A stretch of DNA of 64,000 bases from Bacteroidota bacterium (GCA_051746185.1 JBNJEV010000001.1:88201-152200); one strand, 5' to 3'; shown: positions 712 to 19,694, counted from the stretch's first letter. Notes: generated by a model from the letters alone, not told the origin. Numbers and translations are program-made.

Positions 712-721
712 TTTGCTGCGT

Positions 722-1273
722 TTATTTATCTATACCTTTTTGTAGCATTTTCTTTCTGATGTTCTTTAAACTGCTGGAAACACTGGCATCATACTGGCGG
801 TCTTCGATGGTCAGTATGAATCCCCCGATGATCTTTTCATTAACCGCCGGTGAAAGCTCAACCTCCAGTTCATATGCATTTTCAATAAGGTCCTGTATCT
901 TTTTCATGACCGGTTCCCCTACGGGCTGTGCGGTTACCAGTTTGACAGAACGGATCCCTTTTGCTTTCCGGTAAAAATCCATGAAATTCCTGACGATCCC
1001 TGGCAGATATTTCTCCCGCTTATTTTTGATCACCAGGTTGATCATCGAAAGCGAAAGACCAGAGATATATTGTCGCAATACCGACTCAGCGATCCGCGCT
1101 TTCTGGCCGGGCTTCAGGGAAGGCAACAGCAATATATACCTGAAATCATCCAGTTTGTAGGTTTCCTCCAGTACCCCCATATCTTCATATACACTGTCCA
1201 GCAATCCCTTTTCCGCCGCACTCCGGAACAATGCTTTTGCATACCTTACAGAAATCTGGCTTTCATTCATCAC
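722..1273 (-). CDS. atpH: ATP synthase subunit delta (OSCP)
   Basis: 183 aa. N-terminus SVRYAKALF is typical of delta/OSCP. Located between atpF and atpA. Confidence 0.9.
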
Positions 1274-1276
1274 CTG

Positions 1277-1771: not shown

Positions 1772-1795
1772 TTGTACTTTTTTTATGTTAATGCA

Positions 1796-1999
1796 TCATA
1801 TACCCATCATGGCCACTACAACGGCAAATAATGAAACACCTTCAACAAGAGCTGCCGAAATGATCATTGCGGTCTGGATCCTTCCCCCGGCCTCGGGCTG
1901 ACGGGCGATGGCATCCATGGCGTGTGCCCCGATCCGTCCGATTCCCCATGCTGCTCCGATCACTGCAATTGCTGCTCCGATTGCTGATAAATTTTCCAT
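1796..1999 (-). CDS. atpE: ATP synthase subunit c
   Basis: 67-aa hairpin proteolipid with an ARQPE loop and the conserved Glu in helix 2 (ALVEG). Confidence 0.92.
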   Translation of the reverse strand: MENLSAIGAAIAVIGAAWGIGRIGAHAMDAIARQPEAGGRIQTAMIISAALVEGVSLFAVVVAMMGI

Positions 2000-2024
2000 A
2001 ATTAGATAATTTTTTTAATGAACA

Positions 2025-3143
2025 TTAATCATGGTGATGCTCCGGCATCGCCAATCCAACAAATAATGCTGTTAATACAGTGAAAATATATGCCTGTATA
2101 AATGCCACAAGTAATTCGATCATATCCATGAAAACAACCATGATCATGGAGGGCACGGAAATGATCAGGGATTTGAAAATAAAGATCATGGCGATCATGC
2201 TGAGGACAATGATGTGACCTGCGGTGATGTTGGCGAAAAGCCGGATCATCAGTGCAAAGGGCTTGGTGAAAATCCCGATGAGTTCAACCGGAAACATGAT
2301 CGGCGCAAGCCAGACAGGCACTCCGGGTGGTTTGAATAAATGCTGCCAGTAATCTTTGTTCCCGCTGAAAATTGTGATCAGTAAGGTAAACGCAGCCAGC
2401 ACCAGGGTCACGGCAATGTTCCCGGTCACATTGGCCCCGAAAGGAAAAAACGGGATGATTCCCATCAGGTTGTTTATCAGGATGAAAAAGAATACTGTCA
2501 GCAGATAGGGCATGTACCTGTGGTACTTCTCCTCACCGATGTTCGGGATGGCGATGTTCTCCTCAATGAAAACGATCACCGGCTCCAGAAATCCCTGGAG
2601 GCCTTTGGGCTCACTGATACCTTTCTTTTTATAGGACCTGGCCAGTCCAAGGAAGACCACGAGCAGGATGATCACCGACAACATCATCATGAACACATTC
2701 TTGGTAATGGAGAAATCCAGCGGCAGGCCTTCCTCGACCATTACCCCGTGTTCGTCCACCTCGATGATCTTTCCCTTCAGGTCTTTTCCATCCACTGTGC
2801 CGTGCCCCATCCTGAACCCTTTGTAGGTATGCCCGTGGGCAAGCTTTCCGGAAAAGAAACAGTGAAATCCTGAGTGCCTACTGTAAAGGATCACGGGTAA
2901 GTAAACACTCACATGCTTTCCTTCCTCCGTGGTAAGAATATGCCATTCATGGGAATCTTTGATGTGATCCATGATAAATTCATTGGCCTGAAATTCCTCA
3001 TCCTCAGTTTTTGAAATATCATGGATCTGCTGCGTCTCCTCCCCCTGCGGATGGTGGGTTTGTGCCTGTAAAACACCACCCGAGATTGATATGCCAGATA
3101 TGATAGAGATAATACCTGCGGCAGCAAAATTTCTTAAGGTCAC
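2025..3143 (-). CDS. atpB: ATP synthase subunit a
   Basis: 372-aa polytopic protein with the LFANITAGH-type motif (RLFANITAGHI). Operon position fits. Confidence 0.9.
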   Translation of the reverse strand: MTLRNFAAAGIISIISGISISGGVLQAQTHHPQGEETQQIHDISKTEDEEFQANEFIMDHIKDSHEWHILTTEEGKHVSVYLPVILYSRHSGFHCFFSGKLAHGHTYKGFRMGHGTVDGKDLKGKIIEVDEHGVMVEEGLPLDFSITKNVFMMMLSVIILLVVFLGLARSYKKKGISEPKGLQGFLEPVIVFIEENIAIPNIGEEKYHRYMPYLLTVFFFILINNLMGIIPFFPFGANVTGNIAVTLVLAAFTLLITIFSGNKDYWQHLFKPPGVPVWLAPIMFPVELIGIFTKPFALMIRLFANITAGHIIVLSMIAMIFIFKSLIISVPSMIMVVFMDMIELLVAFIQAYIFTVLTALFVGLAMPEHHHD

Positions 3144-3154
3144 AATCAGCGCAA

Positions 3155-3535
3155 TTATTTATTCCTAAATAACTTAAACAGGTGGCCTGCCAAGAATATG
3201 GTAAAGGCCAAATATAGTACAAAAAATGTAACGAAAAATGGAACGGTCAGATTTTTTATAACCAGCCAGTATACCAGTAAATATAACAGATACGAAAGGA
3301 ATTTAAACCCAACTCCCAGCATCATGAATACCATTTGACCTCCGCTGCTTTTTTCACTACCCAGGGACATAACATAATATGTAACCAGGTTGATAACCGT
3401 GACAACCGCAAGGGTAATGATAAAAGAATTAAAGGTTAATCCGGTACGTACCTGAGAAAGGAAGATAAGTCCCAGGATCATGAAAACCGAAGACAGGATG
3501 AGAAGTTGCCAGGTAAAGCGTATCCGGTTAATCAT
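3155..3535 (-). CDS. Small 4-TM membrane protein in the AtpI position of the atp operon
   Basis: 126 aa, hydrophobic, immediately upstream of atpB. No diagnostic motif was recognised. Confidence 0.5.
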   Translation of the reverse strand: MINRIRFTWQLLILSSVFMILGLIFLSQVRTGLTFNSFIITLAVVTVINLVTYYVMSLGSEKSSGGQMVFMMLGVGFKFLSYLLYLLVYWLVIKNLTVPFFVTFFVLYLAFTIFLAGHLFKLFRNK

Positions 3536-3794
3536 TGTTTTTTCCTATAAAATCCTTCAAAGCCAGGTAAAGACCTGCAAAAACTCCCAGCAGGGTGAGT
3601 ATGGCTGTGTAGACCGGTTTTTCTGTGGAAGCTCTCTCGTCAAGTTTTGAACCTGCCCAGTAAAAAAGCAGGATGACGGCCAGCATCTGGAAACCCATTC
3701 CGGAGTACCTGGCAAAAGTCTTCAGGCCGGAGGTGCCTTTTTTATCCTTCTTTAGGTTTTGCTCCTTGTTCTGAGATGACCTCTTTTTTTCCAC
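3528..3794 (-). CDS. AtpZ/AtpI-family small membrane protein (start uncertain)
   Basis: Contains FARYSGMGFQMLAVILLFYWAGSKLDE, typical of AtpZ. The listed ATG start (3926) would overlap the bactofilin gene by about 180 nt. In-frame GTG codons at 3794 and 3803 are more plausible starts. Confidence 0.6.
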   Translation of the reverse strand: MEKKRSSQNKEQNLKKDKKGTSGLKTFARYSGMGFQMLAVILLFYWAGSKLDERASTEKPVYTAILTLLGVFAGLYLALKDFIGKNND

Positions 3795-4149
3795 CCATAT
3801 CACATTTACCCGTAAAAATGGCTCCCGGTTCAATTGCCAGCTTGCCTGTTTTAATATCCCCGTACACTTTGGCCACCGAACGGAGGGACAGCAGCTCCTC
3901 CACCACCAGTCTCCCTTCCACCACACCTTCTATCTCGCAGTTCCTGCAATGTATCTCACCCGATACCTTTCCGCTCTGTCCCACGAAAACCTTACCCTTG
4001 GTGGACATATTGCCGTTCAGGATCCCGTCAAAACGGACATTTTCATTTGAAGTAAGATTTCCCTCAATGGTTGTTCCCACTCCGATCATGTTGATCTTGT
4101 TGGTGCTTTCAGCTTCGTCGCTCTTTGCCATAGCCTGTTTTGTTATCAA
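3742..4149 (-). CDS. Bactofilin (polymer-forming cytoskeletal protein, DUF583)
   Basis: 135 aa with a repetitive beta-helix pattern: IGxGTTIEGNL...VRFDGILNGNM...GKVSGEIHC...IEGVVEGRLVV...GDIKTGKLAIEPGAIFTG. Confidence 0.8.
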   Translation of the reverse strand: MITKQAMAKSDEAESTNKINMIGVGTTIEGNLTSNENVRFDGILNGNMSTKGKVFVGQSGKVSGEIHCRNCEIEGVVEGRLVVEELLSLRSVAKVYGDIKTGKLAIEPGAIFTGKCDMGGKKEVISEQGAKPKEG

Positions 4150-4161
4150 AAGTAATGATTA

Positions 4162-5157
4162 TTATTTTGCCCCGTCATATGCCCATTTGAGATAAATGGA
4201 TCCCCAGGTAAATCCTCCTCCGAAGGCTGTAAGGATCAGCTTATCCCCCTTTTTCAGCTTTGATTCCCACTCCCAGAGACATAACGGTATTGTGGCCGCA
4301 GTGGTATTTCCATACCTTTCTATGTTGATCATCACCCTCTCTTTGGGAATCCCCATCCGGCGTGCCACCGCCTCGATGATCCGCATATTTGCCTGATGCG
4401 GCACCAGCCAGTCCAGATCTTCCGGTTTGAGTTGATGTCTTTTCATGAGCTCAATGGAAACATCGGCCATTTTTGATACAGCCACCTTGAACACGGCCTG
4501 TCCTTCCTGGTAAACGAAATGCTCCCGGGCCTCAACGGTTTCATGGGACGGGGGACGGGCCGATCCTCCCGCTTTCATATGAAGATATTGTACTCCGCTG
4601 CCATCCACCTCCAGAATGGCATCCCGTATCCCCAGTTCTTCATCCACCGGTTCCAGCAGCACGGCCCCTGCTGCATCCCCGAAAAGCGGGCAGGTGGTCC
4701 TGTCCGTGTAGTCAGTAATGGCCGACATCATGTCGGTTCCAACCAAAATCACCTTTCGGTGGGTCCCCGACTGGACAAACTGAGCAGCGGTCTGCAAACC
4801 AAAGAGAAACCCCGAGCAGGCCGCTGAAAGATCAAAACTCCATGCATTTTTCATTCCCACTTTTTCGCTGATCAGGTTGGCAGTGGAAGGAAAATGATAA
4901 TCGGAAGTAACGGTGGCGCAGACAACCAGTTCAATCTCTTCCGGTTTGGTCCCGGTCTTTTTCAGCAGGCCGTTTACGGCAGCGGCTCCCATATCGGAGG
5001 TGGCACCTTCCTTCAGAATGCGTCTTTCCTTGATACCGATCCGCTGCATGATCCATTCGTCCGTTGTTTCGACCATGGTACTCAATTCCTCGTTATCGAG
5101 CCTGTATTCAGGTACCCAACCTTGAATTCCTGTAATTCCTGCGACAATCTTGTTCAT
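4162..5157 (-). CDS. fabH: 3-oxoacyl-ACP synthase III
   Basis: Shows the FabH pattern [11 protein letters not shown], active-site region AACSGF, HQAN and GNTTAATIP. The likely start is the internal [10 protein letters not shown] (5157) rather than 5208. Confidence 0.9.
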
Positions 5158-5394
5158 TGATCCGGTTCTTCTAGTTGCTTCTACAATTGATGAAGGTTCA
5201 AAATTCACAAAAATATATATGTCCGTTCATTTGCGAAAAAAGGTTTTGAATAATTGGGACCAAAAAGACCATACGGGTATAAAACAACCGGACGGGTATC
5301 CTTGTGTGATCCCACGTCCGGTAAGGGAATGAAAGATGACCATGAACCTTCATCTTTTCAGGCAAAGCTACAGTGGAAAGGAAAGATTCCCTTC

Positions 5395-5589
5395 CTATTC
5401 CATTTCCGCCCCGGTTTCGACAACCAGTTTGCCCTTGTAATAAAGGTTCCCGTCCACATAGTAGGCATGGTGCCTCTCATGCACGGTGCCCGTTGTTGCA
5501 CATGTGGACAATGTGGGCGCAGTTGCTTTATAATGGGTCCTTCTTTTATCTCTTCTGGTTTTCGAGGTTTTTCTTTTCGGATGTGCCAT
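5395..5589 (-). CDS. rpmF: 50S ribosomal protein L32
   Basis: The [20 protein letters not shown]-terminus is diagnostic for L32. It follows yceD as in many bacteria. Confidence 0.9.
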
Positions 5590-6842: not shown

Positions 6843-9281
6843 ATGTCACTGCTCAAAAATTACTTTTTGGCTCTCATTCGCTATGCGGTGAGGGATAAGT
6901 TTTTCTTTATTCTGAACCTGCTGGGCCTTGCGATTGGGATCACCGCATCAATTCTGATCTTTATTTACGTCAGGGATCAGCTCACCTATGACAGGCAAAA
7001 CGAGAATTTCGAGAGGATCTACCGGCTGGAAGGGGATTTTTTCATCAACGAAAAAAGAGATCTTACCGCCATTGTACAGATCCCCCTGGCCCCCACCCTT
7101 CATGATGAATATCCTGAGATTGAAGAATTTGCCCGGATCCTGCCCCAGCGTGACCTTTATTTCGAACAGGGCGAGGATACATTCAAGGAAGACAGCGTGA
7201 TGTGGGCCGATTCCACCATATTCAAGGTTTTTACGCTTCCTTTCATTACGGGAGATCCTGAAACAGCACTCAATGAACCATATACCATGGTCATGAGCGA
7301 GTCTATGGCCCGCAAATATTTCGGCACCCGGGATGTGGTGGGAAAGAGTATGAAAGCACTGGATGGCTCCAATTACACCATAACGGGAGTATTCAGAAAT
7401 CTTCCCCGGAATGTCCACCTGAGATTTAACGGACTGCTGTCTGCCGTCACCATTGAAGAACAGATCGGAAGTGAACGGTTCAATGACCGGAGCGCCGGTT
7501 CTTTCTGGAACGTGAGCACCTATGCCTATGTCCTGCTGGCTGAGAACACCACCCCTGAAATGATCCTAGCCAAGTTCCCGGATTTCTATGATAAATATAT
7601 GGCCGAACTGGGTGACCAGATCGATGCCTCTTTCGATCTGAGGATCACTCCGCTGTCCGATGTGCATTTCCAGAAAGATGAACTGACATGGGATCTTCCC
7701 AAAGGGAACATGAACTACATCGTCATCATGGGCATTATCGGGGTGCTTCTGATCATGATCGCCAGCATCAACTATACCAACCTGACCACGGCCAGGGCAG
7801 CCAACCGGGCCAAAGAGATCGGGATCAGAAAAGTCGGGGGTGCGGATAAAAAAGTACTCCGCTCCCAGTTCCTGGGCGAGTCATTGATCAATGCCCTTTT
7901 TGCAGGCATCCTGTCAGCCCTCCTGACCATCCTGGCACTTCCCCTTTTCAACAGCCTGGCCTCAATTCAGTATGACTGGCATATACTCCTGGATCCGGTC
8001 ATCCTGCTGTTCATTCTGGGGATCTCTATCCTGACCGGGGTCCTGTCGGGCATCTATCCTTCCACCTACCTGGCATCTTTCAATCCGGTGAGCGTTCTGA
8101 AGGGCAACGGATCCAGCCTGAAAGACCGGGGCTGGCTGAGAAGGGGCCTGGTCATCGCCCAGTTCCTGATCTCCTCTGTGATGATCATCGGTTCCATTAT
8201 CGTGGCCCTGCAAATGAGGTTCATCCAGCAAAAGGACCTGGGATTTGACAGGGAACAGATCCTGATGCTGTCGCTGAACGATACGGCTGTTGTCAGCAAT
8301 GTGCATGCGTTCATGGAGGAGATCGAAAGACATCCTGCAGTGGAGGAAACTGCACTTTCCACCACCGCTCCCGGCAGGTTCTACGGAAAACAGGTCATGA
8401 CCGCCGAAGACAACCAGGGTGAGCTGCAGGAAAAGGCATTCAACAGCTGCGTGGTCAATTACGAATACCTGGATGTGATGGGACTGACCCTGGAGAAGGG
8501 GAGATTTTACAACAGGGAATTCGGATCGGATGAGAACAGTTCCGTGGTGGTCAACGAAGCCCTGGTGCGGGAAATGCAGTGGGGGGAGGATGCCCTGGGC
8601 AAACAATTCATCATCGGCGTGAATATCGAAGGAGCCAATAATCCGGTGGGGGAAGTCATCGGTGTGGTCCGCGACTTCAATTACGGATCGCTGCACAATC
8701 CGGTCCAGTCCCTGGTCCTCATTTGCAGGGACAATCCCCAGTTCATGCGGACACTCTCGGTCAGGGTGAACGGGGAGAACATGCAGGAAGTCCTGGAGTG
8801 GATCGAAGAACAGCGGAACCGGTTCAATCCTGCCTATCCCATCCAGTACAGCTACCTGAGCGATGAACTGGATACCCTCTATGAAGAGGAAAAGATCATT
8901 TTCGCCCTGGTCATTTCCTTTACGATCCTGATCATTTTCATTGCGGCCCTGGGATTGCTCGGGCTGTCCGCATTCATGACCGCGAAGAGAACACGGGAGA
9001 CGGGCATCCGAAGGGTGATGGGTGCTTCCCAGAACCAGATCCTGGCCCTGTTCCTGGTGCAGTTCTCCAAATGGGTGATCCTTGCCAACGTGATCGCATG
9101 GCCGGTCTCCTATTTCATCCTGAAAAACTGGCTTCAAAATTTCAATTACCGGATTGAATTTCCATTCTGGACCTTTGTCCTATCTTTGTTGTTATCAATC
9201 ATCGTGGCCGTGATCACGGTAAGCTGGCAATCACTGAAAGCTTCCAGGATGAATCCGGCCGCTTCCATCAGGGTGGAATGA
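6843..9281 (+). CDS. ABC transporter permease, FtsX/MacB-like (two FtsX domains)
   Basis: 812 aa. Has an N-terminal TM helix, a large periplasmic domain, and repeated 4-TM FtsX blocks with KEIGIRKVGGA and RETGIRRVMGAS motifs. Confidence 0.85.
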   Translation: MSLLKNYFLALIRYAVRDKFFFILNLLGLAIGITASILIFIYVRDQLTYDRQNENFERIYRLEGDFFINEKRDLTAIVQIPLAPTLHDEYPEIEEFARILPQRDLYFEQGEDTFKEDSVMWADSTIFKVFTLPFITGDPETALNEPYTMVMSESMARKYFGTRDVVGKSMKALDGSNYTITGVFRNLPRNVHLRFNGLLSAVTIEEQIGSERFNDRSAGSFWNVSTYAYVLLAENTTPEMILAKFPDFYDKYMAELGDQIDASFDLRITPLSDVHFQKDELTWDLPKGNMNYIVIMGIIGVLLIMIASINYTNLTTARAANRAKEIGIRKVGGADKKVLRSQFLGESLINALFAGILSALLTILALPLFNSLASIQYDWHILLDPVILLFILGISILTGVLSGIYPSTYLASFNPVSVLKGNGSSLKDRGWLRRGLVIAQFLISSVMIIGSIIVALQMRFIQQKDLGFDREQILMLSLNDTAVVSNVHAFMEEIERHPAVEETALSTTAPGRFYGKQVMTAEDNQGELQEKAFNSCVVNYEYLDVMGLTLEKGRFYNREFGSDENSSVVVNEALVREMQWGEDALGKQFIIGVNIEGANNPVGEVIGVVRDFNYGSLHNPVQSLVLICRDNPQFMRTLSVRVNGENMQEVLEWIEEQRNRFNPAYPIQYSYLSDELDTLYEEEKIIFALVISFTILIIFIAALGLLGLSAFMTAKRTRETGIRRVMGASQNQILALFLVQFSKWVILANVIAWPVSYFILKNWLQNFNYRIEFPFWTFVLSLLLSIIVAVITVSWQSLKASRMNPAASIRVE

Positions 9282-10132
9282 CAGCATTGAAAGTACTGGG
9301 GAAGAAAATCATTGTTGACGGAAAAGTATCGGAGGCATCGGATTTTCATTCCGGTATGTCGGCCGATACCTATTATGAGGTGGTGCGCCTGATCGACGGG
9401 AAATTCCTGTTCCTGCAGGACCACCTGGACCGCCTGAAACATTCCCTCTCGGGATCGGACATCCCCTATCCGGGAGATGGAATCCTGCGCCGGTATTTGG
9501 GAATGCTTCTGGAGAACAATGAAATTCAGTCCGGGAATGTCAGGATCTGCATGCAGAAAAAGCCGGAGGACCGGGTCCGGACCTGCTGCTATTTCATCTC
9601 CTATTTCTACCCTTCTCCGCCCATGTATTCCGAAGGGGTGAAACTGCTCACCTTTCCCTATGTTCGTTCCAGTCCCGGGATCAAAAGATGGGACGGCATT
9701 TTCAGGGAATCGGTCGGCGGGTTCATCCGGGAGAACGGGATCTATGAAGCCGCACTGGTGAACAGCAAAAAGCAGGTGACCGAAGGGAGCCGGTCCAATA
9801 TTTTCTTCATAGACCGGGACAACCGGCTGGTTTCTGCTCCTGAAAACGAAATGCTCTCCGGGATCACCAGGAAATATGTGCTCCGCATCTGCAGGGAAGA
9901 AGGAATCCCGGTCATGGAAAGACCCGTCCACCTGAAGGAACTCGATAAAATGTCCGCCTGTTTTATCACGGGCACCTCCCCAAAAATCCTTCCCGTATGG
10001 CAACTGGATGGATTCCTGTTCGATGTGGCCCATCCCCTTTTATCTCTTCTGATGGAACGCTTTGATCAAATCCTTCAGGAAAACCTGGAACACCCCGGAT
10101 CATACTCGTCCGGAAAGAATCAGACAAAATGA
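9278..10132 (+). CDS. Class IV aminotransferase family protein (BCAT / aminodeoxychorismate lyase-like)
   Basis: 284 aa. Contains EGSRSNIFF ... LSGITR ... ITGTSPKILPV, typical of fold-type IV PLP enzymes. The ATGA overlaps the upstream gene. Confidence 0.75.
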   Translation: MTALKVLGKKIIVDGKVSEASDFHSGMSADTYYEVVRLIDGKFLFLQDHLDRLKHSLSGSDIPYPGDGILRRYLGMLLENNEIQSGNVRICMQKKPEDRVRTCCYFISYFYPSPPMYSEGVKLLTFPYVRSSPGIKRWDGIFRESVGGFIRENGIYEAALVNSKKQVTEGSRSNIFFIDRDNRLVSAPENEMLSGITRKYVLRICREEGIPVMERPVHLKELDKMSACFITGTSPKILPVWQLDGFLFDVAHPLLSLLMERFDQILQENLEHPGSYSSGKNQTK

Positions 10133-10209
10133 AATCCTCAGCTTGTGCCTGTAAACAAATATACATCCCGGGATGTTACTTCATCAGGAAAACCTTAAAA
10201 CCAGCCCCC

Positions 10210-10956
10210 ATGAAACACAAATTCTTTCCCGTGATCCTGTTCCTTGTTTTTCCCATTCTTCTCCCGGCCCAGGAAAAAAGGATCTACCATTCCAGCGGGG
10301 GTGAGATCATTTTTTCAGGGGCCGATGTGGAATATATCGGGCAAAGCATCAACACGAATGTCCGGTTCACCCTTTTCTTTCATACCCAGCATCATGTCAA
10401 CCTGGATCTGAACAACAACATCGGTTTGTTCACAGGATTCGGGATCAGGAATATCGGGCTGATCAAAGAAGATGAATACCAGAATATCGGATTTATGGGC
10501 GTAGACCTGGACCATCCGGATTACAACAAGAACGCCAAGATCAAGCGTCGAAGCTATTCCCTCGGATTTCCCGTGGCCCTGAAATTAGGCTCTTTCAGGG
10601 ATCACTTCTTTCTCTACGGGGGGTATGAATATGAATGGATGTTCCACTACAAGCAGAAGCTTTTCATTGACGGAGAAAAACACAAATTCAAGGAATGGAC
10701 CAGCGACCGGGTCAATTCCTGGATCCCGGCTGTTTTCGGAGGGATCCAGTTCCCGGGCGGACTGAACCTGAAATTCAAGTATTACCTGGAAGATTTCCTG
10801 AATCCCGGTTTCACAGGGACCGATTTCGACGAACCGGTGGACTATTCCAATTATACCAGCAGCCGGATCTGGTACATTTCCGTTTCCTTCATGATCAACA
10901 GAAAGCTTGTCAGAAAATGGATGGGCGGAAATGAAGAAACCGCCATGACTCTTTAG
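10210..10956 (+). CDS. Hypothetical secreted/outer-membrane beta-barrel-like protein
   Basis: Signal peptide MKHKFFPVILFLVFPILLPAQ, followed by alternating aromatic/glycine beta-strand patterns. No family was recognised. Confidence 0.5.
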   Translation: MKHKFFPVILFLVFPILLPAQEKRIYHSSGGEIIFSGADVEYIGQSINTNVRFTLFFHTQHHVNLDLNNNIGLFTGFGIRNIGLIKEDEYQNIGFMGVDLDHPDYNKNAKIKRRSYSLGFPVALKLGSFRDHFFLYGGYEYEWMFHYKQKLFIDGEKHKFKEWTSDRVNSWIPAVFGGIQFPGGLNLKFKYYLEDFLNPGFTGTDFDEPVDYSNYTSSRIWYISVSFMINRKLVRKWMGGNEETAMTL

Positions 10957-11621
10957 GCAATCTTCTGCACATTCTCGATCAGCCGCTGGAGAAAGCCTTC
11001 GGCAACGACGATATCGGTGATCCCGTCGATCAGGAACTGTATTCCCACACAGAGCAGCAGGAATCCCATGATCTTGGAAAGCGCATTGACCCCGGTTGCT
11101 CCGAAAAATTTCAGGATCTTGTCCGATGCCCGCAGGGTCAGGAATGCAGCCAGCACAGTCAGGACAATACCCAGAATGATCGCCGTAAAATCGGTCCAGC
11201 GATCGGTCCCTGCCGCCAGACCGATGGTTACGGCTATGGCACCCGGGCCGCTCAGGCTAGGCATGGCCAGCGGTGTGAAGGAAACATCACTTTTTTCAAT
11301 TGCTTCTTCCTTTGTTTCAGGTTTGATCTCTTCATTTTCAGCCTTCAGCATCGAATAGGCTACCCGGATTACCATGACACCCCCTGCAATTCGTAGTCCG
11401 GGTATGGAAATACCGAAGAACTCCATGATCAGGGTTCCGGTGATCAGAAAGACGATCAAAATCCCTATCGTGTAGACCGAAGCTTTAAAAGCCTGCTTTC
11501 TTCTTTCCTCGGGGGTCCTGTCCCCGGTGATGGACATGAAAAGCGCAGCGGTGCTTACCGGATTGGTAATGGGAAGCAGCGCAACAATAGTCGCGAGAAT
11601 CAAATTAAACCAGTTACTCAT
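10953..11621 (-). CDS. MarC family (UPF0056) integral membrane protein
   Basis: LLPITNPVSTAALF motif and six predicted TM segments. The likely start is MSNWFNL (11621); the upstream extension is non-hydrophobic junk. Confidence 0.75.
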   Translation of the reverse strand: MSNWFNLILATIVALLPITNPVSTAALFMSITGDRTPEERRKQAFKASVYTIGILIVFLITGTLIMEFFGISIPGLRIAGGVMVIRVAYSMLKAENEEIKPETKEEAIEKSDVSFTPLAMPSLSGPGAIAVTIGLAAGTDRWTDFTAIILGIVLTVLAAFLTLRASDKILKFFGATGVNALSKIMGFLLLCVGIQFLIDGITDIVVAEGFLQRLIENVQKIA

Positions 11622-11865
11622 AAGGAATGGATTTTTCAGAAGAGCGGAACAAATCATTTGCCAGAAGATCTTTCGGTACCTCTGAATTGGATCCGAACAA
11701 CATACAGGATCACCGGATACAGGGTATTCCGCGGGTTTACCGAAGACCGGCCGCCCGTCCATCCGCCGGTCCCTTGGGGAAAATCGGTCACGAACCTGTG
11801 GCGAAAAATGGACAGGGTGAATCGTGTTCTTCATTAAAGGATTTTTTCTAATTTTACACCGCAGA

Positions 11866-11940
11866 GGGGTGTTAGCTCAGTTGGTTCAGAGCGCATGCTT
11901 GACAGGCATGAGGTCACTGGTTCGATTCCAGTACATCCCA
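11866..11940 (+). tRNA. tRNA-Val (anticodon GAC)
   Basis: A cloverleaf can be drawn by hand. Acceptor GGGGTGT/ACATCCC (one G-U pair), D arm GCTC-AGTTGGTTCA-GAGC, anticodon stem CATGC/GCATG with loop TTGACAG, T arm ACTGG-TTCGATT-CCAGT, discriminator A. CCA is not encoded. Confidence 0.9.
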
Positions 11941-12116
11941 CGAGGGTTACGGAAGATTGAGAACACCTGCTCGCGTGTATTTTGCGTGCAGAATGAAAAA
12001 TGAGGGGTCGCGGAATTACCCAGCAACCCTCATCGGGATAGAGGAGGATAGCAAAATTTTATCCAGGCTTAAAAAAGCGGCGTCGGTCTCGTGAGGTCTT
12101 TCTTTAAATAATTGGA

Positions 12117-12845
12117 TCAGCTTCGAACTTCAGCCAGGGCTTCCTGGTACTTATAGTTCGCCACCTGGATATCTTCAAATCCAATGTACTCGTACCACTC
12201 GCGAACCACGTACCACACCATCACATTCTCGATAACTGGATCAAGCAGCTTGATGTAATTGGTGTCTGTGGAAAACTGCGTCATCAAAGATCGTTTCCTC
12301 GTCACCCGTCATCGCGATCCTGTCCATCTGCACATTGCCGTCCTGGACCAGAAATACATTCTTCTGCAGCTGGTACACGAACTGTTCGTATGAGCCGTTC
12401 CGGATAACCGCAATGGCTGGGATGTAATCCAGGTCATACGCCTCCAGCATCGGTTTGTACACGTTGTATGGAAGGTATGTGTACTCCTCCTCAGTGTCCA
12501 CCACAACGTCGAAGATGTAGAACCTACGCCAGGCAACATCCTTGTAGGTGCGCAGACTATGCGGCACCAGCCATTCCCCGAACAGCCTGTAATCCGAATG
12601 CCCGTCCAGGAATGCCCTGAACCTGCGATCAGACGTCACGTACTTATAGAACCCGGCATTGTCGCTCTCCGCCGACAGCTGCCTGCTCCGGGAGCCAGCC
12701 CGTACTTCTCCGTCACTGAACCAGACCGTCCCATTGGTCCAGTCGATCTTGGGGAACACATATGCTTCGCCCAGCTCGATGTTCTGCACGTCATCGGTGC
12801 CGAACCTTTCTCTATATGCTGGTGTTTTTTGAATTCTCTTTCCAT
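12117..12845 (-). pseudogene. Rnl2-like ATP-dependent RNA ligase family gene, split over three reading frames
   Basis: The ATG at 12845 is preceded by AGGAGGACTAATT. A conceptual -1 shift near 12806 gives MEREFKKHQHIEKRFGTDDVQNIELGEAYVFPKIDWTNG. This resembles FKKY..LE plus motif I K-I-D-G-T-N (here W replaces G). Further downstream are LFGEWLVP (motif III-like) and FYIFDVV (motif IIIa-like). A second frame change is needed between 12308 and 12241. Confidence 0.45.
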
Positions 12846-13314
12846 AATTAGTCCTCCTATATATAAGTAATTTATATATTCATTTCATATAAAAAAGCAC
12901 AGATTTTTTTCCGGACTGTGGTTATTTTTCAATTTTTTGATTTGTTCCAAATGATACTTGGGAACATCCGGAAATCCTTGTCAATCAACGATTTTCTAAA
13001 ATGGGATACTAAATATGATTGCTATGTTGATCTGAATATGCCCTACTCACAGATAAAATATAAATTTGGGGTAACAATTTCACTTCCAAACTGATTAAAC
13101 TATGACCAGTCATAGTTTAAAATCTTTCTAAATAACTTAATGTGGATTGATTCAAAATAAGGAGCAGACCAGGCTCTTGACTTGTAATTTATCTTGAAGT
13201 AACTTATTGATGAATTCAACTCAGGATATCCTGTATTCTTCTTATCACTGTATTACCGTACCCCGGGATTCAGGTATTTAATTTGATTTATCAATCACCT
13301 TAAAACTACTTACT

Positions 13315-14728
13315 ATGAAAAAATTATTCTTATAAATTGCTGCTGTATTCTTTACACATTTTAGTCATGCTTACGCAGATCATAATGTTAATGTTAATGG
13401 TGATACAAATGCTTGTGGTGGATCTAGAAGCGAATATACTATTTGGTATGATTTCGGTTTAGCAACAAGAATCTCTTGGCAAGTCACTGGAGGTACTTTC
13501 GATGATGGTTCGACTTATAAAGAGTTTAATAAAGTTGAAGAAGGTCTTGGTATTAACGTAAATTGGAATTACGATCAGACAGGTGTTCAAGCCATAATTA
13601 AAGGAAGGGTTTATTTTTTGTTAGAAGGTTGGGAACCGGATGAAATAGAAGTTGACGTAACTTCAAGAACTGCAATAGATAAATTCATTGGTGAAAAAGA
13701 GAATGGAGACCTCTATATTACTCCAGGGAATAAGACAGAAACAATTTATGCAGATGAACCAGGTGTATCCGACGAGTATAATTGGGAATATACTCCTTAT
13801 GGAGAGCCAACAGAATATACAACTACAAGCATTCCACAACTCGATATAGAACTATCAACTTATGAGGTTGGGTCCATATCAGTATCTGCAACGAATTATG
13901 GTCATTGTGATGGGGAATTAAGCGAAGCAACCGCAAATATGAAAAGGAAATTGGCTAATCCAGTATGGGATTCACCAGTCGATGAATTATGCAATAATAC
14001 TACTGAAATATACTCTTTGGTCTCTGCTATTCCTTATGCAACAATGTACGACTATGAAGCAACAAATGGTGTATTGATTTATGAGCCTAATTCTGGTATG
14101 TATTTCCCGTATATAAATAGCTCAAGTACAAGTATTAAAGTGAAAACTCCTACGGGTATAAATGGTGAAAGCTCAATCTCAGTTACTGCAACGAGATACT
14201 TATGAAATGGAGTTAGGGCAGAGAGAAGCCTTCTATGTAACTGATGGTCCTCAAGCTGATAGCTACTCATGGACTTCATACGGAAGTGTAACTATAACCT
14301 CTTATAATCCATATACTAATTTTGCAATGGTCGAGGCAACATCTACTGGATATGGTTACGTTTGGTGTAGATCAATAAACCAATGCGGAGAAAGCCAGAT
14401 TGCGGAAATCAACGTAAATGTTACACAATCAGGATACCTTGGATTTTTTAAGGTCTACCCAAATCCAGCAGATACTTATGTTGTTCTTGAAGCGGATGAA
14501 ACCAAAATGGATCTTTCCGAAGAATCGGTATCGCAAAAGTTAGCCGCAATGAGTAAAAGCTCAATTATTAGGATAGTTGACAAATTGGGAAATGTACGTC
14601 TATCTGAACCATATCAGGGATTAGTAAAAACTCAGATTGACGTTAGTAAGATTCCGTCGGATCTTTATACGATTCAACTAGTGACTTCGAAAGAGACTTT
14701 TAGCACTAAACTTTTGGTGAGCCATTAG
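13315..14728 (+). pseudogene. T9SS-sorted multi-domain surface protein, disrupted by an in-frame TAA and one frameshift
   Basis: ATG at 13315: MKKLFL-TAA(13333-13335)-IAAVFFTHFSHAYA looks like a signal peptide interrupted at codon 7. The frame stays open to 14205, then continues in the +1 frame (14162-14728). Has repeated Ig/PKD-like modules (..ISVSATN..C.GE.S; ..CRSINQCGESQ). The C-terminus FKVYPNPADTYVVLE...LYTIQLVTSKETFSTKLLVSH is a T9SS C-terminal domain. Confidence 0.6.
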
Positions 14729-14754
14729 TAACGTTTACTAAAGAAAGTGATATA

Positions 14755-14790
14755 AGCCAGCAACATTTTGTTTGTTGCTGGCTTTTTCTT
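14755..14790 (+). terminator. Rho-independent terminator
   Basis: Perfect 11-bp stem AGCCAGCAACA / TGTTGCTGGCT with a 7-nt loop, followed by TTTTTCTT. It lies 27 nt after the stop at 14728. Confidence 0.75.
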
Positions 14791-14901
14791 CTATAAACAA
14801 AGAATCTTCTACATCTATTTGTTTTAATTTTGTAGATATACTCTTTTATGTTAGTAATGGCGTTTTTGATATATTTGAACAATCCCATTTAAGCCTATAC
14901 C

Positions 14902-15552
14902 TTGAAAAAACTATTGATATCCAATATATTAATTGCAATCATAACTATTTCACCTTTCGTGGTTAGTGGTCAAGAACTAATTAATCCGGAAACAAATCTT
15001 GGAATTAATATGGGTGGAAATATTTCCAGAGTGAATTTTGATCCCTCTGTAGATCAAGATTTGAACTTTGGATTTCAGGGAGGAATTACATTCAAGTATG
15101 TCAACATAAAAAACCTAGGCATACAACTTGAAGCAAATTATCTACAGGTGGGATGGAAAGAAAGCCTAGATTCAACAAATCTATATCTTCGAAATCTCAA
15201 TTATCTACAAATTCCCTTCATGACTCATATACAAATTGGCGAAGGGAGAATACGATTTCATATGAATTTAGGATCTTTTGTTTCGTTCCTAATATCTGAT
15301 AGAGAAAGAATAAATTTGCTACCCGGTGTTCAAGAACAAAGTTACTATCGTTTGGGAAATTGGAATAGGGCAGAATATGGGTTTTGTCTCGGAGTAGGGC
15401 TATTAACAAACACATCAATCGGAATTTTTCAAATTGAAGGTAGAATCAACTATACTCTAACCAATGTTTTTAAAAAACCACCAGATTCACCATTTACTGT
15501 ATCACAAAACCAATCTTTTGCAGTGACCTTGTCTTATCTATTAGATTTATAG
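14902..15552 (+). CDS. Outer-membrane beta-barrel protein (PorT/OmpA-barrel-like family), TTG start
   Basis: Signal peptide MKKLLISNILIAIITISPFVVSGQ. Alternating beta-strand pattern with GGITFKY, LEANYLQVGW and a C-terminal aromatic-rich strand. AT-rich codon usage. Confidence 0.65.
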   Translation: MKKLLISNILIAIITISPFVVSGQELINPETNLGINMGGNISRVNFDPSVDQDLNFGFQGGITFKYVNIKNLGIQLEANYLQVGWKESLDSTNLYLRNLNYLQIPFMTHIQIGEGRIRFHMNLGSFVSFLISDRERINLLPGVQEQSYYRLGNWNRAEYGFCLGVGLLTNTSIGIFQIEGRINYTLTNVFKKPPDSPFTVSQNQSFAVTLSYLLDL

Positions 15553-15628
15553 ATGAAATAAACACAATGTTCAGAAGTAAGCGTTTGTTCTGTGGCAGGA
15601 TGAAGCCAGATACCTTATGTTTGTTTTT

Positions 15629-15838
15629 TTAAATTACCCTCCTTTCTGTACATAGTTCAAACCCACTGCATTTGACTGCATCGCCCTCGGGGTCAAATGT
15701 GACCTCATAGGATAGAATCCCGCTACTGAACTGGTATGTAATGTCAGTGATAATTCCCGGAGGGGACGCGGGTAACGCATGGAATACCCTGTCCCCTATT
15801 TGGAATATTGGCTTGACTGTAACCATCTCTGGATTCAT
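15629..15838 (-). CDS. Hypothetical 69-aa protein, translationally coupled to the upstream RHH gene
   Basis: ATGA overlap with the preceding ORF. Beta-rich small protein (IFQIGDRVFH...GIITDI...YEVTFDPEGD). No family assigned with confidence. Confidence 0.45.
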   Translation of the reverse strand: MNPEMVTVKPIFQIGDRVFHALPASPPGIITDITYQFSSGILSYEVTFDPEGDAVKCSGFELCTERRVI

Positions 15839-16227
15839 GACGATGTCTGCAATTTGTGACCGAACCGCATCCTGTACGCATAGCTGTCCATGATCAGCGT
15901 TTCGACCAGGTTATTCACACTCCTGTTCTGTCTCTGAGCTTCCGCCTCCAGAAATCCTCCCAGTTCGTCTTGGAACCTGAAGGTCTTCGTATAATGCCTC
16001 ATGTGTGCCATCTTCTGTCCCTCCTTACCATTTGTCCGAATGAAAGTTACCGCCCCCGCGTTGTACATGAATAATGCTGCAAAAAAGTCCGCATCTCCAG
16101 CTGTGAAGTGCTGGATCATCAGGATCACATCCTCTCCGGTACTCTCAAGCAGGTCCAGCCTTATGGTGCTGACCGTGACCTCCCCGGATCCCGGATCATC
16201 AAAAGCCTCCACCGTGGGATTGTACAC
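15835..16227 (-). CDS. Ribbon-helix-helix (CopG/Arc-like) DNA-binding protein; probable true start at 16011
   Basis: The C-terminal 58 aa, MAHMRHYTKTFRFQDELGGFLEAEAQRQNRSVNNLVETLIMDSY, form a beta-strand plus two helices typical of RHH. The ATG at 16011 is preceded by AAGGAGG with an 8-nt spacer. The longer ORF starts with GTG at 16227 and its N-terminal 72 aa are unrecognised. Confidence 0.6.
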   Translation of the reverse strand: MYNPTVEAFDDPGSGEVTVSTIRLDLLESTGEDVILMIQHFTAGDADFFAALFMYNAGAVTFIRTNGKEGQKMAHMRHYTKTFRFQDELGGFLEAEAQRQNRSVNNLVETLIMDSYAYRMRFGHKLQTSS

Positions 16228-16959
16228 TTCCTGGATAATGAATGTGCCCTCAAGGTCCCCGCCGCAAGCAGCGGGGAACCGAGCCTGCGAGCTCGGCCAA
16301 TTTGCTCGCTTAATTCAAAGAAATCCACCGCTATCAGTGATCATGAGAAGAAAAATTAAGGTACCCCGTTCCGTAAAAATCGGAACTAACAAATTCATTA
16401 CTTCTTAACAATTTAGTTAAGTTTCCTTTACTCGGACAATTTTTTCTTGCCGCTATATCTATCTTATTGATAGCAATTTACGAAACAAGGAAAAAGAAAG
16501 ACAGATATCTAAAAACTAACAATATTAAGAAGTCTCAACAGAATTGTTACGTGCAAAAATCACAAAATGACTATACCAGTTTTTTCGCCTGAGCGATTGG
16601 ATGCGATGTCCAACATTGCACAAAGGGTAATCGGAAGCGGAATAGACTCTCCTCGAAGCTTGCTTCGAGGAATCTTTAGCAGCCAATCATTGATCCCGTT
16701 AAGGTATATTATCCTTTATTTCTCGCTAACTCCGCAGCAAAGCTGTGGGGAACCGAAGCGGAGCTTGACAAAGTCAATGCCCTCGCCGGGATTCCGATTG
16801 TCGAGGCTTTTTTGATACCTTTGAATACCCTCATGACAAGGACGATGAAAAAAATTGCCGGAATCACATCACTGGTTGTGTTGTCCCTGGCAATCCTGAT
16901 CCTGATACACGTTGTTGAAGAACCTGAAAGATTTTGCAGTGAGTTGAAAAAATCCATCC

Positions 16960-19173
16960 ATGAAGATATACCTGGATCATAATGCCACCACGCCGGTGGA
17001 CGGGGAAGTGGCTGAGGCCATGCAACCCTATTTAAAGGAATACTTCGGGAACCCGTCCAGTTCCCACAGCTTCGGGTCGGAAGCAAAAAAAGCGGTCGAG
17101 CATGCCCGCAGGCAGGTTGCGGAATCCATCCATTGCCGGCCCGGGGAGATTATCTTTACCAGCGGGGGGACCGAATCGAACAATTATGCCATCAAGGGAT
17201 TCGCCTATGCGAATGAGCACAGTGGAAACCACCTGATCATCTCGGCCATTGAGCATCCATCGGTGACCGAAGTATGCCATTACCTGGAGAAAAAAGGGTT
17301 CCGCGTTTCCGTCATCCCTGTGGATGAGTCCGGTATCATCCGGCTGGAACAGCTGGAGGAAGCCATCACCCCGCAGACCATCCTGATCTCGGTCATGCAT
17401 GCCAACAATGAGATCGGGACCATCCAGCCCATCCGGGAGATCACCGAAATTGCCCGGAAACACCGGATCGCCGTTCACACCGACGCGGCCCAGTCGCCGG
17501 GAAAAATCCCTGTCAATGTAGAGGAACTTGGCGTGGACCTGCTCTCCATTGCCGGGCACAAACTGTATGCACCCAAAGGGATCGGGGCCCTGTATATCCG
17601 TGACGGAATGGAGCTCGAAAAACTCATTCACGGAGCCGACCATGAACAGAACAAGCGTGCGGGCACGGAAAATGTGCTGGAGATCGTCGGACTGGGGAAA
17701 GCCTGTGAGATCGCCCGCCGGGACCTGGACAGGCATATGGCGCACATGAAAAAGATGAGGGATTTGCTTCACGATCTTCTCCAGGAGAAGCTGCAGGGGA
17801 TCAAAATGAACGGCCATCCGAAGATGCGGCTTCCCAACACACTGAGCCTGAGTTTTCACAGAATCGAGGCCAATGTCCTGCTGAATGAACTAAAAATGAA
17901 GGGCATTGCCGCATCTGCCGGGGCTGCATGCCACACCGGTTCAGTGGATGTTTCTCCGGTACTGAGCGCGATCGGTCTGGAAGATGATTTTGCCATGGGG
18001 ACCATCCGCTTTTCAGCGGGCAGGTATACCACGGAAGAGGAAATAAACCGTGCTGCAGGGATCATCATAGATTCGGTGAACCGGTTAAGGCCCTCCGGAA
18101 AGGATCAACCCGGAGAGTCAATACAGTCCCCGGACAGCATCCAGCTCACAAAATACACAAAGGGACTTGGGTGTGCCTGTAAACTGCGACCCCAGGACCT
18201 GGAAAAGGTACTGAAGAAGATGCCGGTTTCCTCCGACCCCCGTGTTCTGATCGATGCCAGGCATTCAGACGATGCGGCGGTATACAGGATCAGTGAGACA
18301 ACAGCCCTTGTCCAGACAGTCGATTTCTTCACCCCTATTGTGGACAGTCCGTATGATTTCGGAGCCATCGCGGCGGCCAATGCCCTGAGCGATATCTATG
18401 CCATGGGGGCCAGACCTATTTTTGCGCTGAATATTGTTGGCTTTGCTCCGGGCAGACTTCCCATGAGCGTTCTGGAAGAAATACTCAGGGGAGCCAACGA
18501 CAAGGCAAAAGAAGCGGGGATCAGCATCCTGGGCGGACACACCATTGACGATCCCGAACCAAAATACGGGATGGTCGTGACCGGCACGGTCCACCCCGGT
18601 AAGATCCGGGCCAACTCAGCAGCCAGGGAAAATGAGGCGATCATCCTCACCAAGCCCATCGGGACCGGGATCATGACCACTGCCCTGAAACGCGGACTGA
18701 TCGATCATAAAACCAGCACTGAAGTGATCCGGTCCATGTCGGAATTAAATCAAAAGGCAGCAGAGATCATCGGAAAATATTCCCCGGGGGCCTGCACCGA
18801 TGTTACCGGCTTCGGACTGATCGGCCATATGAGCGAAATATCGGCTGCCAGCGGGGTGGATATGGAACTGTTTGCGGGACGGGTCCCTGTCTTTGAGGAG
18901 GTAATGGATTTTGCGGCAGCCGGTGTGATCCCCGGAGGATCCACCAACAATTTGGATTATTTTTCAAAATATGTTGACTGGGAATACGGAATATCCGCCC
19001 TTACCCGGATCGTTCTCAATGATGCACAGACCTCCGGAGGATTATTGTGTACGGTTCCTGAAAATGAAAAAGAAACCCTTCTGGAGGAACTACAATCTGC
19101 GGGTATCCGTTTTGCCACTCATATCGGCAATTGCCTGAAAAGAGGCGCGGGGAAGATCCAGGTAAAAAAATAG
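16960..19173 (+). CDS. selD: Bifunctional cysteine desulfurase/selenocysteine lyase-like (NifS) plus selenide, water dikinase (SelD) fusion
   Basis: 737 aa. The N-terminal approx. 385 aa carry class V aminotransferase motifs (LDHNATTP, SGGTESNN, SIAGHKLYAPKGIGALYIR, SAGAACHTGS). A linker follows, then SelD (KGLGCACKLRPQDL = GCxCK active site; DDAAVY; GGHTIDD; TKPIGTG). Confidence 0.85.
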   Translation: MKIYLDHNATTPVDGEVAEAMQPYLKEYFGNPSSSHSFGSEAKKAVEHARRQVAESIHCRPGEIIFTSGGTESNNYAIKGFAYANEHSGNHLIISAIEHPSVTEVCHYLEKKGFRVSVIPVDESGIIRLEQLEEAITPQTILISVMHANNEIGTIQPIREITEIARKHRIAVHTDAAQSPGKIPVNVEELGVDLLSIAGHKLYAPKGIGALYIRDGMELEKLIHGADHEQNKRAGTENVLEIVGLGKACEIARRDLDRHMAHMKKMRDLLHDLLQEKLQGIKMNGHPKMRLPNTLSLSFHRIEANVLLNELKMKGIAASAGAACHTGSVDVSPVLSAIGLEDDFAMGTIRFSAGRYTTEEEINRAAGIIIDSVNRLRPSGKDQPGESIQSPDSIQLTKYTKGLGCACKLRPQDLEKVLKKMPVSSDPRVLIDARHSDDAAVYRISETTALVQTVDFFTPIVDSPYDFGAIAAANALSDIYAMGARPIFALNIVGFAPGRLPMSVLEEILRGANDKAKEAGISILGGHTIDDPEPKYGMVVTGTVHPGKIRANSAARENEAIILTKPIGTGIMTTALKRGLIDHKTSTEVIRSMSELNQKAAEIIGKYSPGACTDVTGFGLIGHMSEISAASGVDMELFAGRVPVFEEVMDFAAAGVIPGGSTNNLDYFSKYVDWEYGISALTRIVLNDAQTSGGLLCTVPENEKETLLEELQSAGIRFATHIGNCLKRGAGKIQVKK

Positions 19174-19201: not shown

Positions 19202-19694
19202 ATGAGCAATGAATATTTGTATACGATGAAAAAAAGAATGGAACCCGAATTACCTGAGGCAACAGAACAATGGGGGTGGAAATACCATCATCTGGGAATT
19301 CCCACAGATAAAGTGATGCCCGGTGAAAGGTATCTGCCGCAGTACAAATTCTATGTTTCAGGTTTTGAAACAAATCCCTTCGGGAGAACTGGAGAAAGAT
19401 TACGTACTGACGGATCACATATTCATGATGCATGAGGATTCTCCTGAGATGACCTGGGGCGAATCCTACAGCCGGATGGTCGCTCAGGTCCGGCCCGGGC
19501 TGAATGTGATGATCGTCCACCTTGCCTATGACAATGAGGAGATGCAGGCAGTGGCCATTAATCATCCCGATTTCGGATCAGCCTGGCGGCAGCGTGATCT
19601 TGATTTCGTCACCAGCGGGGAATTCAAAGATCTGCTGAAAAAGCACAACATTCACCTGGTCACCTGGAAAGAGATCAAGGATACCTGGTATTGA
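19202..19694 (+). pseudogene. Two juxtaposed gene fragments: VOC/glyoxalase-like N-terminus and ChbG/YdjC-type deacetylase-like C-terminus
   Basis: 19202-19385 encodes WKYHHLGIPTDKVMPGERYLPQYKFYVSGFETNPFG (VOC-like) and then loses similarity. A different frame (19323-19694) encodes only a C-terminal-looking segment, PGLNVMIVHLAYDNEEMQAV...AWRQRDLDFVTS...IHLVTWKEI. Confidence 0.35.

Follow-up and report, generated by a model that had tools for sequence, protein, structure and literature searches.

A Small Islet Next to tRNA-Val in an Uncultured Bacteroidales Genome, Probably a Decayed and Strain-Variable Remnant of Imported Genes

INTRODUCTION

Additive flexible genomic islands at tRNA genes have been described for Alteromonas (PMC3698932; also PMC10872708). 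Here, a tRNA-adjacent site was analyzed in the genome of an uncultured member of the Bacteroidales (GCA_051746185.1, contig JBNJEV010000001.1, positions 88201 to 152200). This 64,000-nt stretch is referred to below as the window, and all coordinates are counted from its first nucleotide. Between tRNA-Val and a nifS-selD fusion gene, positions 11958 to 16255 probably represent a small flexible genomic islet of about 4.3 kb, a decayed and strain-variable remnant of imported genes that starts 17 nt past the tRNA gene. A preliminary description of the same DNA had stated that the gene content turns foreign and damaged right after tRNA-Val, and this was borne out by composition, family scans and lesions. 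Location at a tRNA 3' end, atypical composition and presence/absence polymorphism, which together characterize genomic islands, were all found at this site.

RESULTS

Occupied, replaced and empty alleles

The anchors and bounds of the islet are as follows.

11866-11941, plus strand: tRNA-Val(GAC), predicted by ARAGORN (Rfam RF00005, 68.5 bits), the left anchor of the islet
11958-16255, no strand: the islet proper, absent from allele C, which has 30 nt of filler instead
16256-16300, plus strand: GC-rich hairpin (CCCCGC...GCGGGG, then AACCGAGCC), the right islet border and the left copy of a direct repeat
16960-19173, plus strand: nifS-selD fusion gene (Aminotran_5, AIRS and AIRS_C matches), the right-hand host anchor

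The tRNA was the sole match in an Rfam scan of positions 11000 to 17500 (E ≤ 1), and it is kept in three related metagenome contigs, L116, L121 and L122. Close relatives of the locus were obtained through protein clusters at 90% identity and then by exact look-ups. Alleles A (the window), B, B' and C differ in content, and an intergenic region and a 130-aa open reading frame (ORF) are shared, which is the pattern of an additive flexible island. Allele C is contig L122, from SRR14492187, so that an islet-free allele was found in the same sequencing run as the islet itself. L122 is 99.93% identical to positions 9141 to 11957 of the window, continues with 30 unique nt and then with 30 nt equal to positions 16256 to 16285, giving a spacing of 46 nt between tRNA-Val and the hairpin. 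This junction sets the islet bounds at 11958 and 16255, and the end at 16560 that had been given in the preliminary description is thus too far to the right.

Allele B is represented by L116, together with L121 and L117 (European Nucleotide Archive assemblies). Its host flanks are 92 to 97% identical to the window, and tRNA-Val and the next 54 nt are conserved; of the RNA-ligase gene that stands at the left end of the islet, only 161 nt remain. Homology to the window runs through the intergenic region and still takes in ATGAAAAAATT, where the next gene, encoding a cargo protein of the type IX secretion system (T9SS), begins. Past this start, L116 switches to other AT-rich sequence of about 2 kb (GC, 0.32 to 0.40) in which the first gene is frameshifted and three further ORFs (187, 112 and 236 aa) gave no family match. 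In L121, a further variant, the first gene continues into a Peptidase_S74 tail-fibre-type domain. Homology resumes at position 15859 (breakpoint 15858/15859), in the last codons of the 130-aa ORF, and this makes the neighboring 69-aa ORF, which is missing from allele B, part of the variable segment and not of a fixed end marked by a ribbon-helix-helix (RHH) gene. Two Logan contigs from different runs both stop at position 15856, no more than 3 nt from the A/B breakpoint, which points to a coexistence of alleles in the samples concerned. Likewise, a third metagenome-assembled genome (MAG), GCA_964453695.1 (99.85% identical; L119), and a Logan contig (L120) both end in or at tRNA-Val (positions 11900 to 11917); these ends fit an assembly-graph branch at a variable site.

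Several insertions were seen in and around these alleles. In L117 (positions 297 to 1622), an IS110-family transposase gene (441 aa) is inserted at the equivalent of about window position 16477, where it separates the RHH-like ORF from nifS-selD. Contig L115 has an IS110 fragment beside a homologue of the cargo gene, and an IS200/605 Y1 transposase gene lies beside the intact cargo gene in contig L118. In L116, an extra TTHB210-like gene is inserted at window position 10153/10154, and a Na+/H+ exchanger gene and a 123-aa ORF follow nifS-selD (about 19205 to 19385). The insertions in L116 indicate that the host flanks also vary by whole-gene insertions and deletions.

Composition, and recurrence of the mosaic in independent assemblies

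An AT-rich block extends from about 12850 to about 15625 (about 2.8 kb). Its GC content is 0.30 to 0.39, compared to about 0.50 upstream and 0.493 ± 0.031 outside (229 windows of 1 kb); the deviation corresponds to a z score of -4 to -5 for GC and of +8 to +10.6 for tetranucleotide distance and is unmatched anywhere else across the 64 kb. These sliding-window statistics agree with the block of about one-third GC that had been placed at 12850 to 15620 by eye. The G+C content at third codon positions (GC3) was 0.61 ± 0.045 for host genes and 0.22 to 0.32 for the cargo gene and an adjoining outer-membrane barrel gene, while that of the ligase fragment (0.75) exceeded the host range. The 130-aa ORF and the 69-aa ORF had values of 0.64 and 0.49.

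Such a mosaic could arise as an assembly or binning artefact if low-GC reads had been joined chimerically into a contig of 49% GC. The window is indeed a contig of a MAG, and in other assemblies the tRNA is a point at which contigs break. However, Logan contigs match the window at 100% identity over positions 12027 to 13124 (SRR31818008), 13924 to 15856 (SRR14492187) and 14197 to 15856 (SRR14492185), so that both GC junctions and both frameshift sites recur in three independent runs. Moreover, a second MAG contig, 201.7 kb long, encodes the same islet proteins, and L116 and L118 have the same junction between ligase and AT-rich sequence at 80 to 92% identity. The recurrence of the junctions in three runs argues that the mosaic is not an assembly chimera, the chance of which we regard as close to negligible; the exception would be a systematic error common to all these assemblies, had they come from a single physical sample.

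A pre-assembled module with a broken ligase gene and a broken cargo gene

The left two-thirds of the islet contains the following features.

11996-12334, minus strand: segment replacing the 3' part of the ligase gene; contains a 62-aa ORF at 12117-12305
12335-12845, minus strand: RNA-ligase pseudogene (PF09414, phrog_548), aligned to phi19:3 gp003 and to the intact L118 copy
12846-13314, no strand: AT-rich intergenic region between the divergent ligase and cargo genes, common to alleles A and B and to L118
13315-14728, plus strand: T9SS cargo pseudogene (PF18962 and PKD_6, domains within 14162-14728)
14754-14784, plus strand: terminator-like hairpin 3' of the cargo gene, with a 12-bp stem and a T run behind it, in a region kept in L118

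The module of which these genes appear to be a copy was found intact in a different context (context D), on contig L118 from SRR13394437 (GC, 0.39), where its neighbors are tRNA-Gln, a trypsin-like protease, a CyanoTRADDas_TM protein and an IS200/605 transposase. Window positions 12335 to 14840 have a colinear counterpart in L118 at 86 to 92% identity and with the same GC contrast, a GC-rich ligase gene next to an AT-rich cargo gene. Because L118 has ligase, intergenic region and cargo gene in the same order, they form one module whose mosaic composition is older than its arrival at the tRNA-Val site, and the left GC junction is not the scar of a later insertion. The earlier view, in which successive insertions placed an AT-rich core between unrelated ends of normal GC, is therefore not supported: on the left the junction is ancestral, and on the right the variable segment includes the 69-aa ORF. 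Within L118 (positions 490 to 5472), the intact ligase gene lies about 1 kb from tRNA-Gln and near the trypsin-like protease and CyanoTRADDas_TM genes, which are of types found in conflict or defense islands. The ligase gene adjoins a tRNA gene in both the window and L118, which may or may not be meaningful.

The L118 ligase is encoded in one frame (300 aa), has the motif KIDGTN and a full PF09414 domain, and is 58% identical to gp003 of Cellulophaga phage phi19:3. In the window, matches to the same families (PF09414, E = 9e-13; phrog_548, E = 2e-23; scan span 12241 to 12789, minus strand) are spread over several frames. Three lesions were identified in this gene. An insertion of 2 nt at codon 12, in GAGAAAGG, destroys the frame. 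A change of GGG to TGG replaces the glycine of motif I by tryptophan and turns KIDG into KIDW (KIDWTN). Since the 161-nt remnant of the ligase gene in L116 reads FPKIDGTNGTVW and thus keeps KIDG, and KIDGTN is found in L116, L118 and the phage ligases, KIDW is the derived state. Finally, homology stops at position 12335 (residue 177 of 308; profile position 134 of 171), beyond which the sequence is unrelated; about 130 codons of the 3' part, including the motif IV-V region, are lost. The window copy consequently has neither an intact motif I KxDG nor a single open frame over the domain. The segment that replaces the 3' part (11996 to 12334) is missing from L116 and L118 and gave no family match except a weak one to DUF7314 (E = 0.03); a search of positions 11990 to 12340 and of the 62-aa ORF against phages gave no match.

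The intergenic region is 89 to 92% identical to L116 and 80 to 86% identical to L118. It holds a perfect 12-nt palindrome at positions 13095 to 13120 (TTAAACTATGAC ca GTCATAGTTTAA); this stretch is missing from L116, and one Logan contig stops just past it.

The cargo gene retains a C-terminal T9SS type A sorting domain (PF18962; 33.9 bits against a cutoff of 27). Its intact orthologue is P0051 (503 aa) in L118, with 86 to 91% nucleotide identity. Compared to P0051, the window gene has a TTA-to-TAA change that creates an in-frame stop at codon 7 (13333 to 13335), inside the signal peptide, a 3-nt deletion also in the signal peptide, and a 95-nt deletion at about 14196/14197, between short TAC repeats, that shifts the frame and takes out 31 codons. 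The gap left by this deletion is likewise covered by P0011, a homologue at greater distance (43% identity); on L115, a contig of 37.6% GC, the P0011 gene adjoins a barrel gene and the IS110 fragment. In the window no Sec signal peptide stands in frame with the sorting domain, and the signal-peptide stop and the 95-nt deletion leave a sorting-domain fragment without an export signal.

In all, seven lesions were identified in the window copy, each defined against intact relatives, and they lead us to regard it as the decayed remnant of the module that L118 keeps intact. From these lesions, the ligase gene (frame, motif glycine and 3' part lost) and the cargo gene (signal peptide and frame lost) are predicted to be nonfunctional. 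We considered the possibility that the genes are functional after all, either because programmed frameshifting or readthrough overcomes the lesions or because the pieces act as split genes. In favor of this, the lesions are identical across several samples, and the C-terminal cargo fragment has an intact sorting domain. However, the ligase also has the substitution in KxDG and lacks the C-terminal codons, and the cargo fragment has no export signal; in addition, the sister lineage has deleted nearly all of the ligase gene. Retained function is therefore highly improbable. Four gene calls of the public annotation, labeled RNA ligase family protein, hypothetical protein (two calls) and T9SS sorting-domain protein, are fragments of these two pseudogenes. 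The recognition in the preliminary description of a split RNA-ligase-like gene and of a disrupted T9SS cargo gene in the AT-rich block was thus confirmed, by the family matches over several frames in the one case and by the PF18962 match, the TAA stop and the frame change near 14197 in the other.

Shine-Dalgarno sites and the question of the donor

Two strong Shine-Dalgarno (SD) sites are present.

12853-12858, minus strand: AGGAGG, 7 nt before the ligase ATG; anti-SD duplex energy, -10.2 kcal/mol
16020-16026, minus strand: AAGGAGG, before the ATG at 16011 in the 130-aa ORF; anti-SD duplex energy, -11.6 kcal/mol

Bacteroidota ribosomes sequester the anti-SD sequence, and Bacteroidota mRNAs are without SD sites (PMC7797042, PMC6847099). 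In keeping with this, the duplex energy for 28 called host genes averaged -1.9 kcal/mol, with -6.5 kcal/mol as the strongest value, so that the observation of two textbook SD sites, with none in host genes, stands. The strong SD site and the high GC3 mark the ligase, on sequence grounds, as an imported gene. As to where the gene came from, a non-Bacteroidota origin of the ends had been suggested, and the evidence points both ways. The SD sites are anomalous even for Bacteroidota phages, since such sites precede 0 of 12 and 1 of 16 genes in two cultured ones, and the GC3 of the ligase is likewise high. Nevertheless, it is Bacteroidota phages that carry the nearest named homologues (for the ligase, phi19:3 gp003 with 53% identity; for the 69-aa protein, Parabacteroides phages with 40%), and the ligase family occurs both in several uncultured viral contigs that use SD sites and in SD-free contigs. 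The L118 ligase has a weaker AGGAAG at the same place. Strong SD sites in Bacteroidota are thus a useful marker of imported genes, and the donor is not revealed by them alone.

The barrel gene and the small ORFs of the right third

The remainder of the islet contains three genes.

14902-15552, plus strand: outer-membrane beta-barrel gene (PF13568, OMP_b-brl_2, E = 3.5e-19), an intact ORF with a TTG start
15629-15838, minus strand: 69-aa ORF, intact, of a small phage-associated family, predicted to form an SH3/Tudor-like beta-barrel
15835-16227, minus strand: 130-aa ORF, of which the C-terminal 58 aa (ATG at 16011) are RHH-like

The barrel gene had been described with a TTG start, and the TTG at 14902 does align with the initial Met of its homologues, the closest of which are 46 to 53% identical. 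Together with the 69-aa ORF it is the only intact gene of the islet, and both could be expressed. The 69-aa product is a full-length member of its family, with 40% identity to a Parabacteroides phage protein; among 25 relatives at E ≤ 1e-3, 17 have 49 to 121 aa and most of those have 61 to 67 aa. Its AlphaFold2 (AF2) model has a predicted local distance difference test score (pLDDT) of 89, and Foldseek matched it best to a Tudor domain (TM score, 0.64). The family consensus is PKFxIGDxVYHxLPxSxxGIVTDIxY...ELSxEK, and the same motif is repeated in proteins of 900 to 2,800 aa.

The C-terminal part of the 130-aa ORF matches HicB (E = 0.009) and RHH_5 (E = 0.024), with RHH-type matches at E values of 0.009 to 0.09 in all, below the Pfam thresholds, and its nearest solved structure, pArc, is a weak match (E = 0.45). 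The AF2 model has a strand-helix-helix at residues 79 to 122 (pLDDT, 67 to 82), and the model of the N-terminal part has a pLDDT of 27 to 68. A search of 5.8 billion proteins retrieved only its own cluster and no relatives beyond this locus. Neither a DNA search of the RHH region against phages nor a protein search against phage records and viral contigs yielded a match. A HicB-like reading of the whole ORF was set aside in view of the low confidence of the N-terminal model and the lack of relatives beyond the cluster. Compared to L116, the 130-aa ORF shows five nonsynonymous changes, one of which puts Pro for Leu in a predicted helix, and no synonymous ones. For host genes in the same comparison, the proportion of synonymous differences (pS) is 0.09 to 0.19 and the ratio of nonsynonymous to synonymous differences (pN/pS) is 0.06 to 0.23, as expected under purifying selection.

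The two small ORFs had been described as an RHH plus small-ORF pair; the overlapping ORFs are there, and the RHH assignment stays below threshold. Such a pair might be a toxin-antitoxin addiction module that retains the remnant in the genome, as the ATG of the 69-aa ORF overlaps the stop of the upstream, RHH-like ORF by four bases (ATGA). This is very unlikely, however, given the subthreshold RHH matches, the predicted SH3/Tudor-like fold of the 69-aa protein and the absence of any Pfam, NCBIfam or PHROGs family, and hence of any toxin family there, among its matches; furthermore, allele B has the RHH ORF without the 69-aa gene, and all changes in the RHH ORF are nonsynonymous, the Leu-to-Pro change among them.

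The right border and signs of mobility

At the right border, the hairpin is one of two copies of an imperfect direct repeat of about 43 nt (score of 16.5 against a null of 7.8 ± 1.3).

16731-16771, plus strand: second hairpin copy (fold z score, -3.7), in a segment of about 140 nt that is missing from L116

Each copy is followed by AACCGA, and the differences between the copies keep the pairing; the hairpin core is AAGCWGYGGGGAACCGA. Mismatches to L116 number 5 in positions 15859 to 16292 (1.15%) and 36 in positions 16293 to 16618 (11%), a sharp switch just past the hairpin. We read this, with the changes in the 130-aa ORF, as a right end that would have recombined recently between lineages, with selection on the 130-aa ORF probably relaxed. 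In the empty allele the hairpin may be a terminator-like structure downstream of tRNA-Val. Two matches to the hairpin core in viral contigs were rejected as chance matches without hairpin context or flanking homology, and a 26-mer of the conserved right end had no match in viral contigs.

No integrase or recombinase was found among the ORFs of positions 11942 to 16959 or the called genes of the window from 953 to 29173. As a repeat of the tRNA 3' end (an attachment, or att, site), the best local match scored 9 to 10, under the background of 11 to 11.5 for other 5.5-kb segments; an 18-nt match to the tRNA at 16860 to 16877 is at chance level and was discarded as an att candidate. No terminal repeats were found. 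The absence of integrase, recombinase and tRNA 3'-end repeat noted in the preliminary description was thereby upheld. Judged without attC covariance models, the site also differs from an integron: an integrase is missing, genes of both orientations are present together with an intergenic region and a terminator of their own, and the hairpin occurs at the right border only.

The site might instead be an active, integrase-free cassette-exchange site, either anchored by the near-invariant right end, with the 130-aa ORF and the hairpin, and by the AT-rich promoter region that the alleles share, or acting through a hairpin-type recombination site. At least three different cargo contents lie between the same two borders, the left homology breaks exactly at the cargo start codon, the divergence jumps from 1.15% to 11% just past the hairpin, and the hairpin occurs twice with pairing-preserving changes. 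However, there is no recombinase nearby, every cargo set begins with a gene that is itself broken, and neither viral contigs nor the rest of the window contain a meaningful copy of the hairpin motif. The same pattern is explained by ordinary homologous recombination through conserved flanks, and the hairpin is equally readable as a terminator-like structure downstream of the tRNA. We therefore consider active exchange very unlikely, and likewise an integrase-free hotspot at which alternative AT-rich surface-protein gene sets would be swapped within a Bacteroidales population.

On the host side, nifS-selD is 91.9% identical to the L116 copy (pN/pS, 0.23). Its product (737 aa) joins a NifS-like class V aminotransferase to the selenophosphate synthetase SelD. 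The fusion is kept in several Bacteroidales MAGs (56 to 74% identity) with differing neighborhoods, and in the window it adjoins a hyp hydrogenase-maturation cluster.

DISCUSSION

The results favor a decayed, strain-variable islet of imported genes between tRNA-Val and the right-border hairpin. The reading of the locus as foreign and decayed gains from an islet-free allele, from intact copies elsewhere and from a sister lineage with independent decay and other cargo. Its left two-thirds would be the degenerate copy of one pre-assembled, compositionally mosaic module, in which a phage-type RNA ligase gene and a gene for a T9SS-secreted PKD-like surface protein diverge from a shared AT-rich intergenic region and are probably followed by the outer-membrane barrel gene. 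The right third would consist of the small phage-family ORF and the RHH-like ORF without relatives beyond the locus. We infer that the islet may have come to the tRNA site within a phage or integrative element of larger size, and that deletions, one of them between short TAC repeats, would later have reshaped it together with homologous recombination through the conserved flanks. Such deletions and flank recombination would explain the presence, absence and replacement alleles of close populations.

Several points weigh against this account. Site-specific entry is a candidate route, and neither an integrase nor an att duplication nor terminal repeats were found. The comparative evidence comes entirely from short metagenome contigs, because two large contig collections yielded no genome closer than about 70 to 74% amino acid identity: in a genome-collection scan with NifS-SelD, relatives had at most 74% amino acid identity, no common neighbors and no tRNA-Val, and in a metagenome-collection scan with MarC, relatives had at most 74% identity and no synteny. 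The comparison with relatives that the preliminary description had called for, a direct succession of tRNA-Val and nifS-selD, came out in part; the empty allele was seen and joins tRNA-Val to the hairpin, and its running on into nifS-selD is inferred, as L122 stops 30 nt into the hairpin. L118 stops before the barrel gene, and the module may therefore extend past what this contig shows. Lastly, pN/pS for the ligase fragment against L116 is 0.35, while a long-dead gene would be near 1; this value is based on only 11 changes.

The locus is a clean, small example of turnover at a tRNA-adjacent hotspot in uncultured Bacteroidales, with empty, occupied and replaced alleles. Together with the intact module copy elsewhere, this set of alleles allows every inactivating mutation to be named. 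The islet is an ordinary kind of genome feature that is unusually well documented here.

Compared to the additive islands of Alteromonas, the site is similar in its fixed tRNA-adjacent position, in cassettes whose number and kind vary among close strains, in the conservation of part of the island and in the nearby insertion sequence elements. It differs in that it is only 4.3 kb long and almost all pseudogenes, carries no integrase, integron or mobilizable-island machinery, and is known from metagenome contigs and not from isolates. A cryptic prophage or integrative-element remnant would share the tRNA 3' end, the phrog_548 ligase, the small ORF of a Parabacteroides phage family, the atypical composition and the decay; unlike such a remnant, the islet has no integrase, att repeat, structural genes or lysis genes, and most of its length is taken up by cell-surface genes (T9SS cargo and barrel). 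At the level of single genes, the ligase matches phi19:3 gp003 over residues 2 to 177 at the 53% identity given above and has the N-terminal EFKK-QH-ERFGT signature in common with it, whereas the window gene is broken at codon 12, reads KIDW and lacks about 130 C-terminal residues. Similarly, the cargo gene resembles T9SS type A cargo with PKD-like repeats in having PF18962 and PKD_6 and differs from it in being broken, so that an exportable product is not expected.

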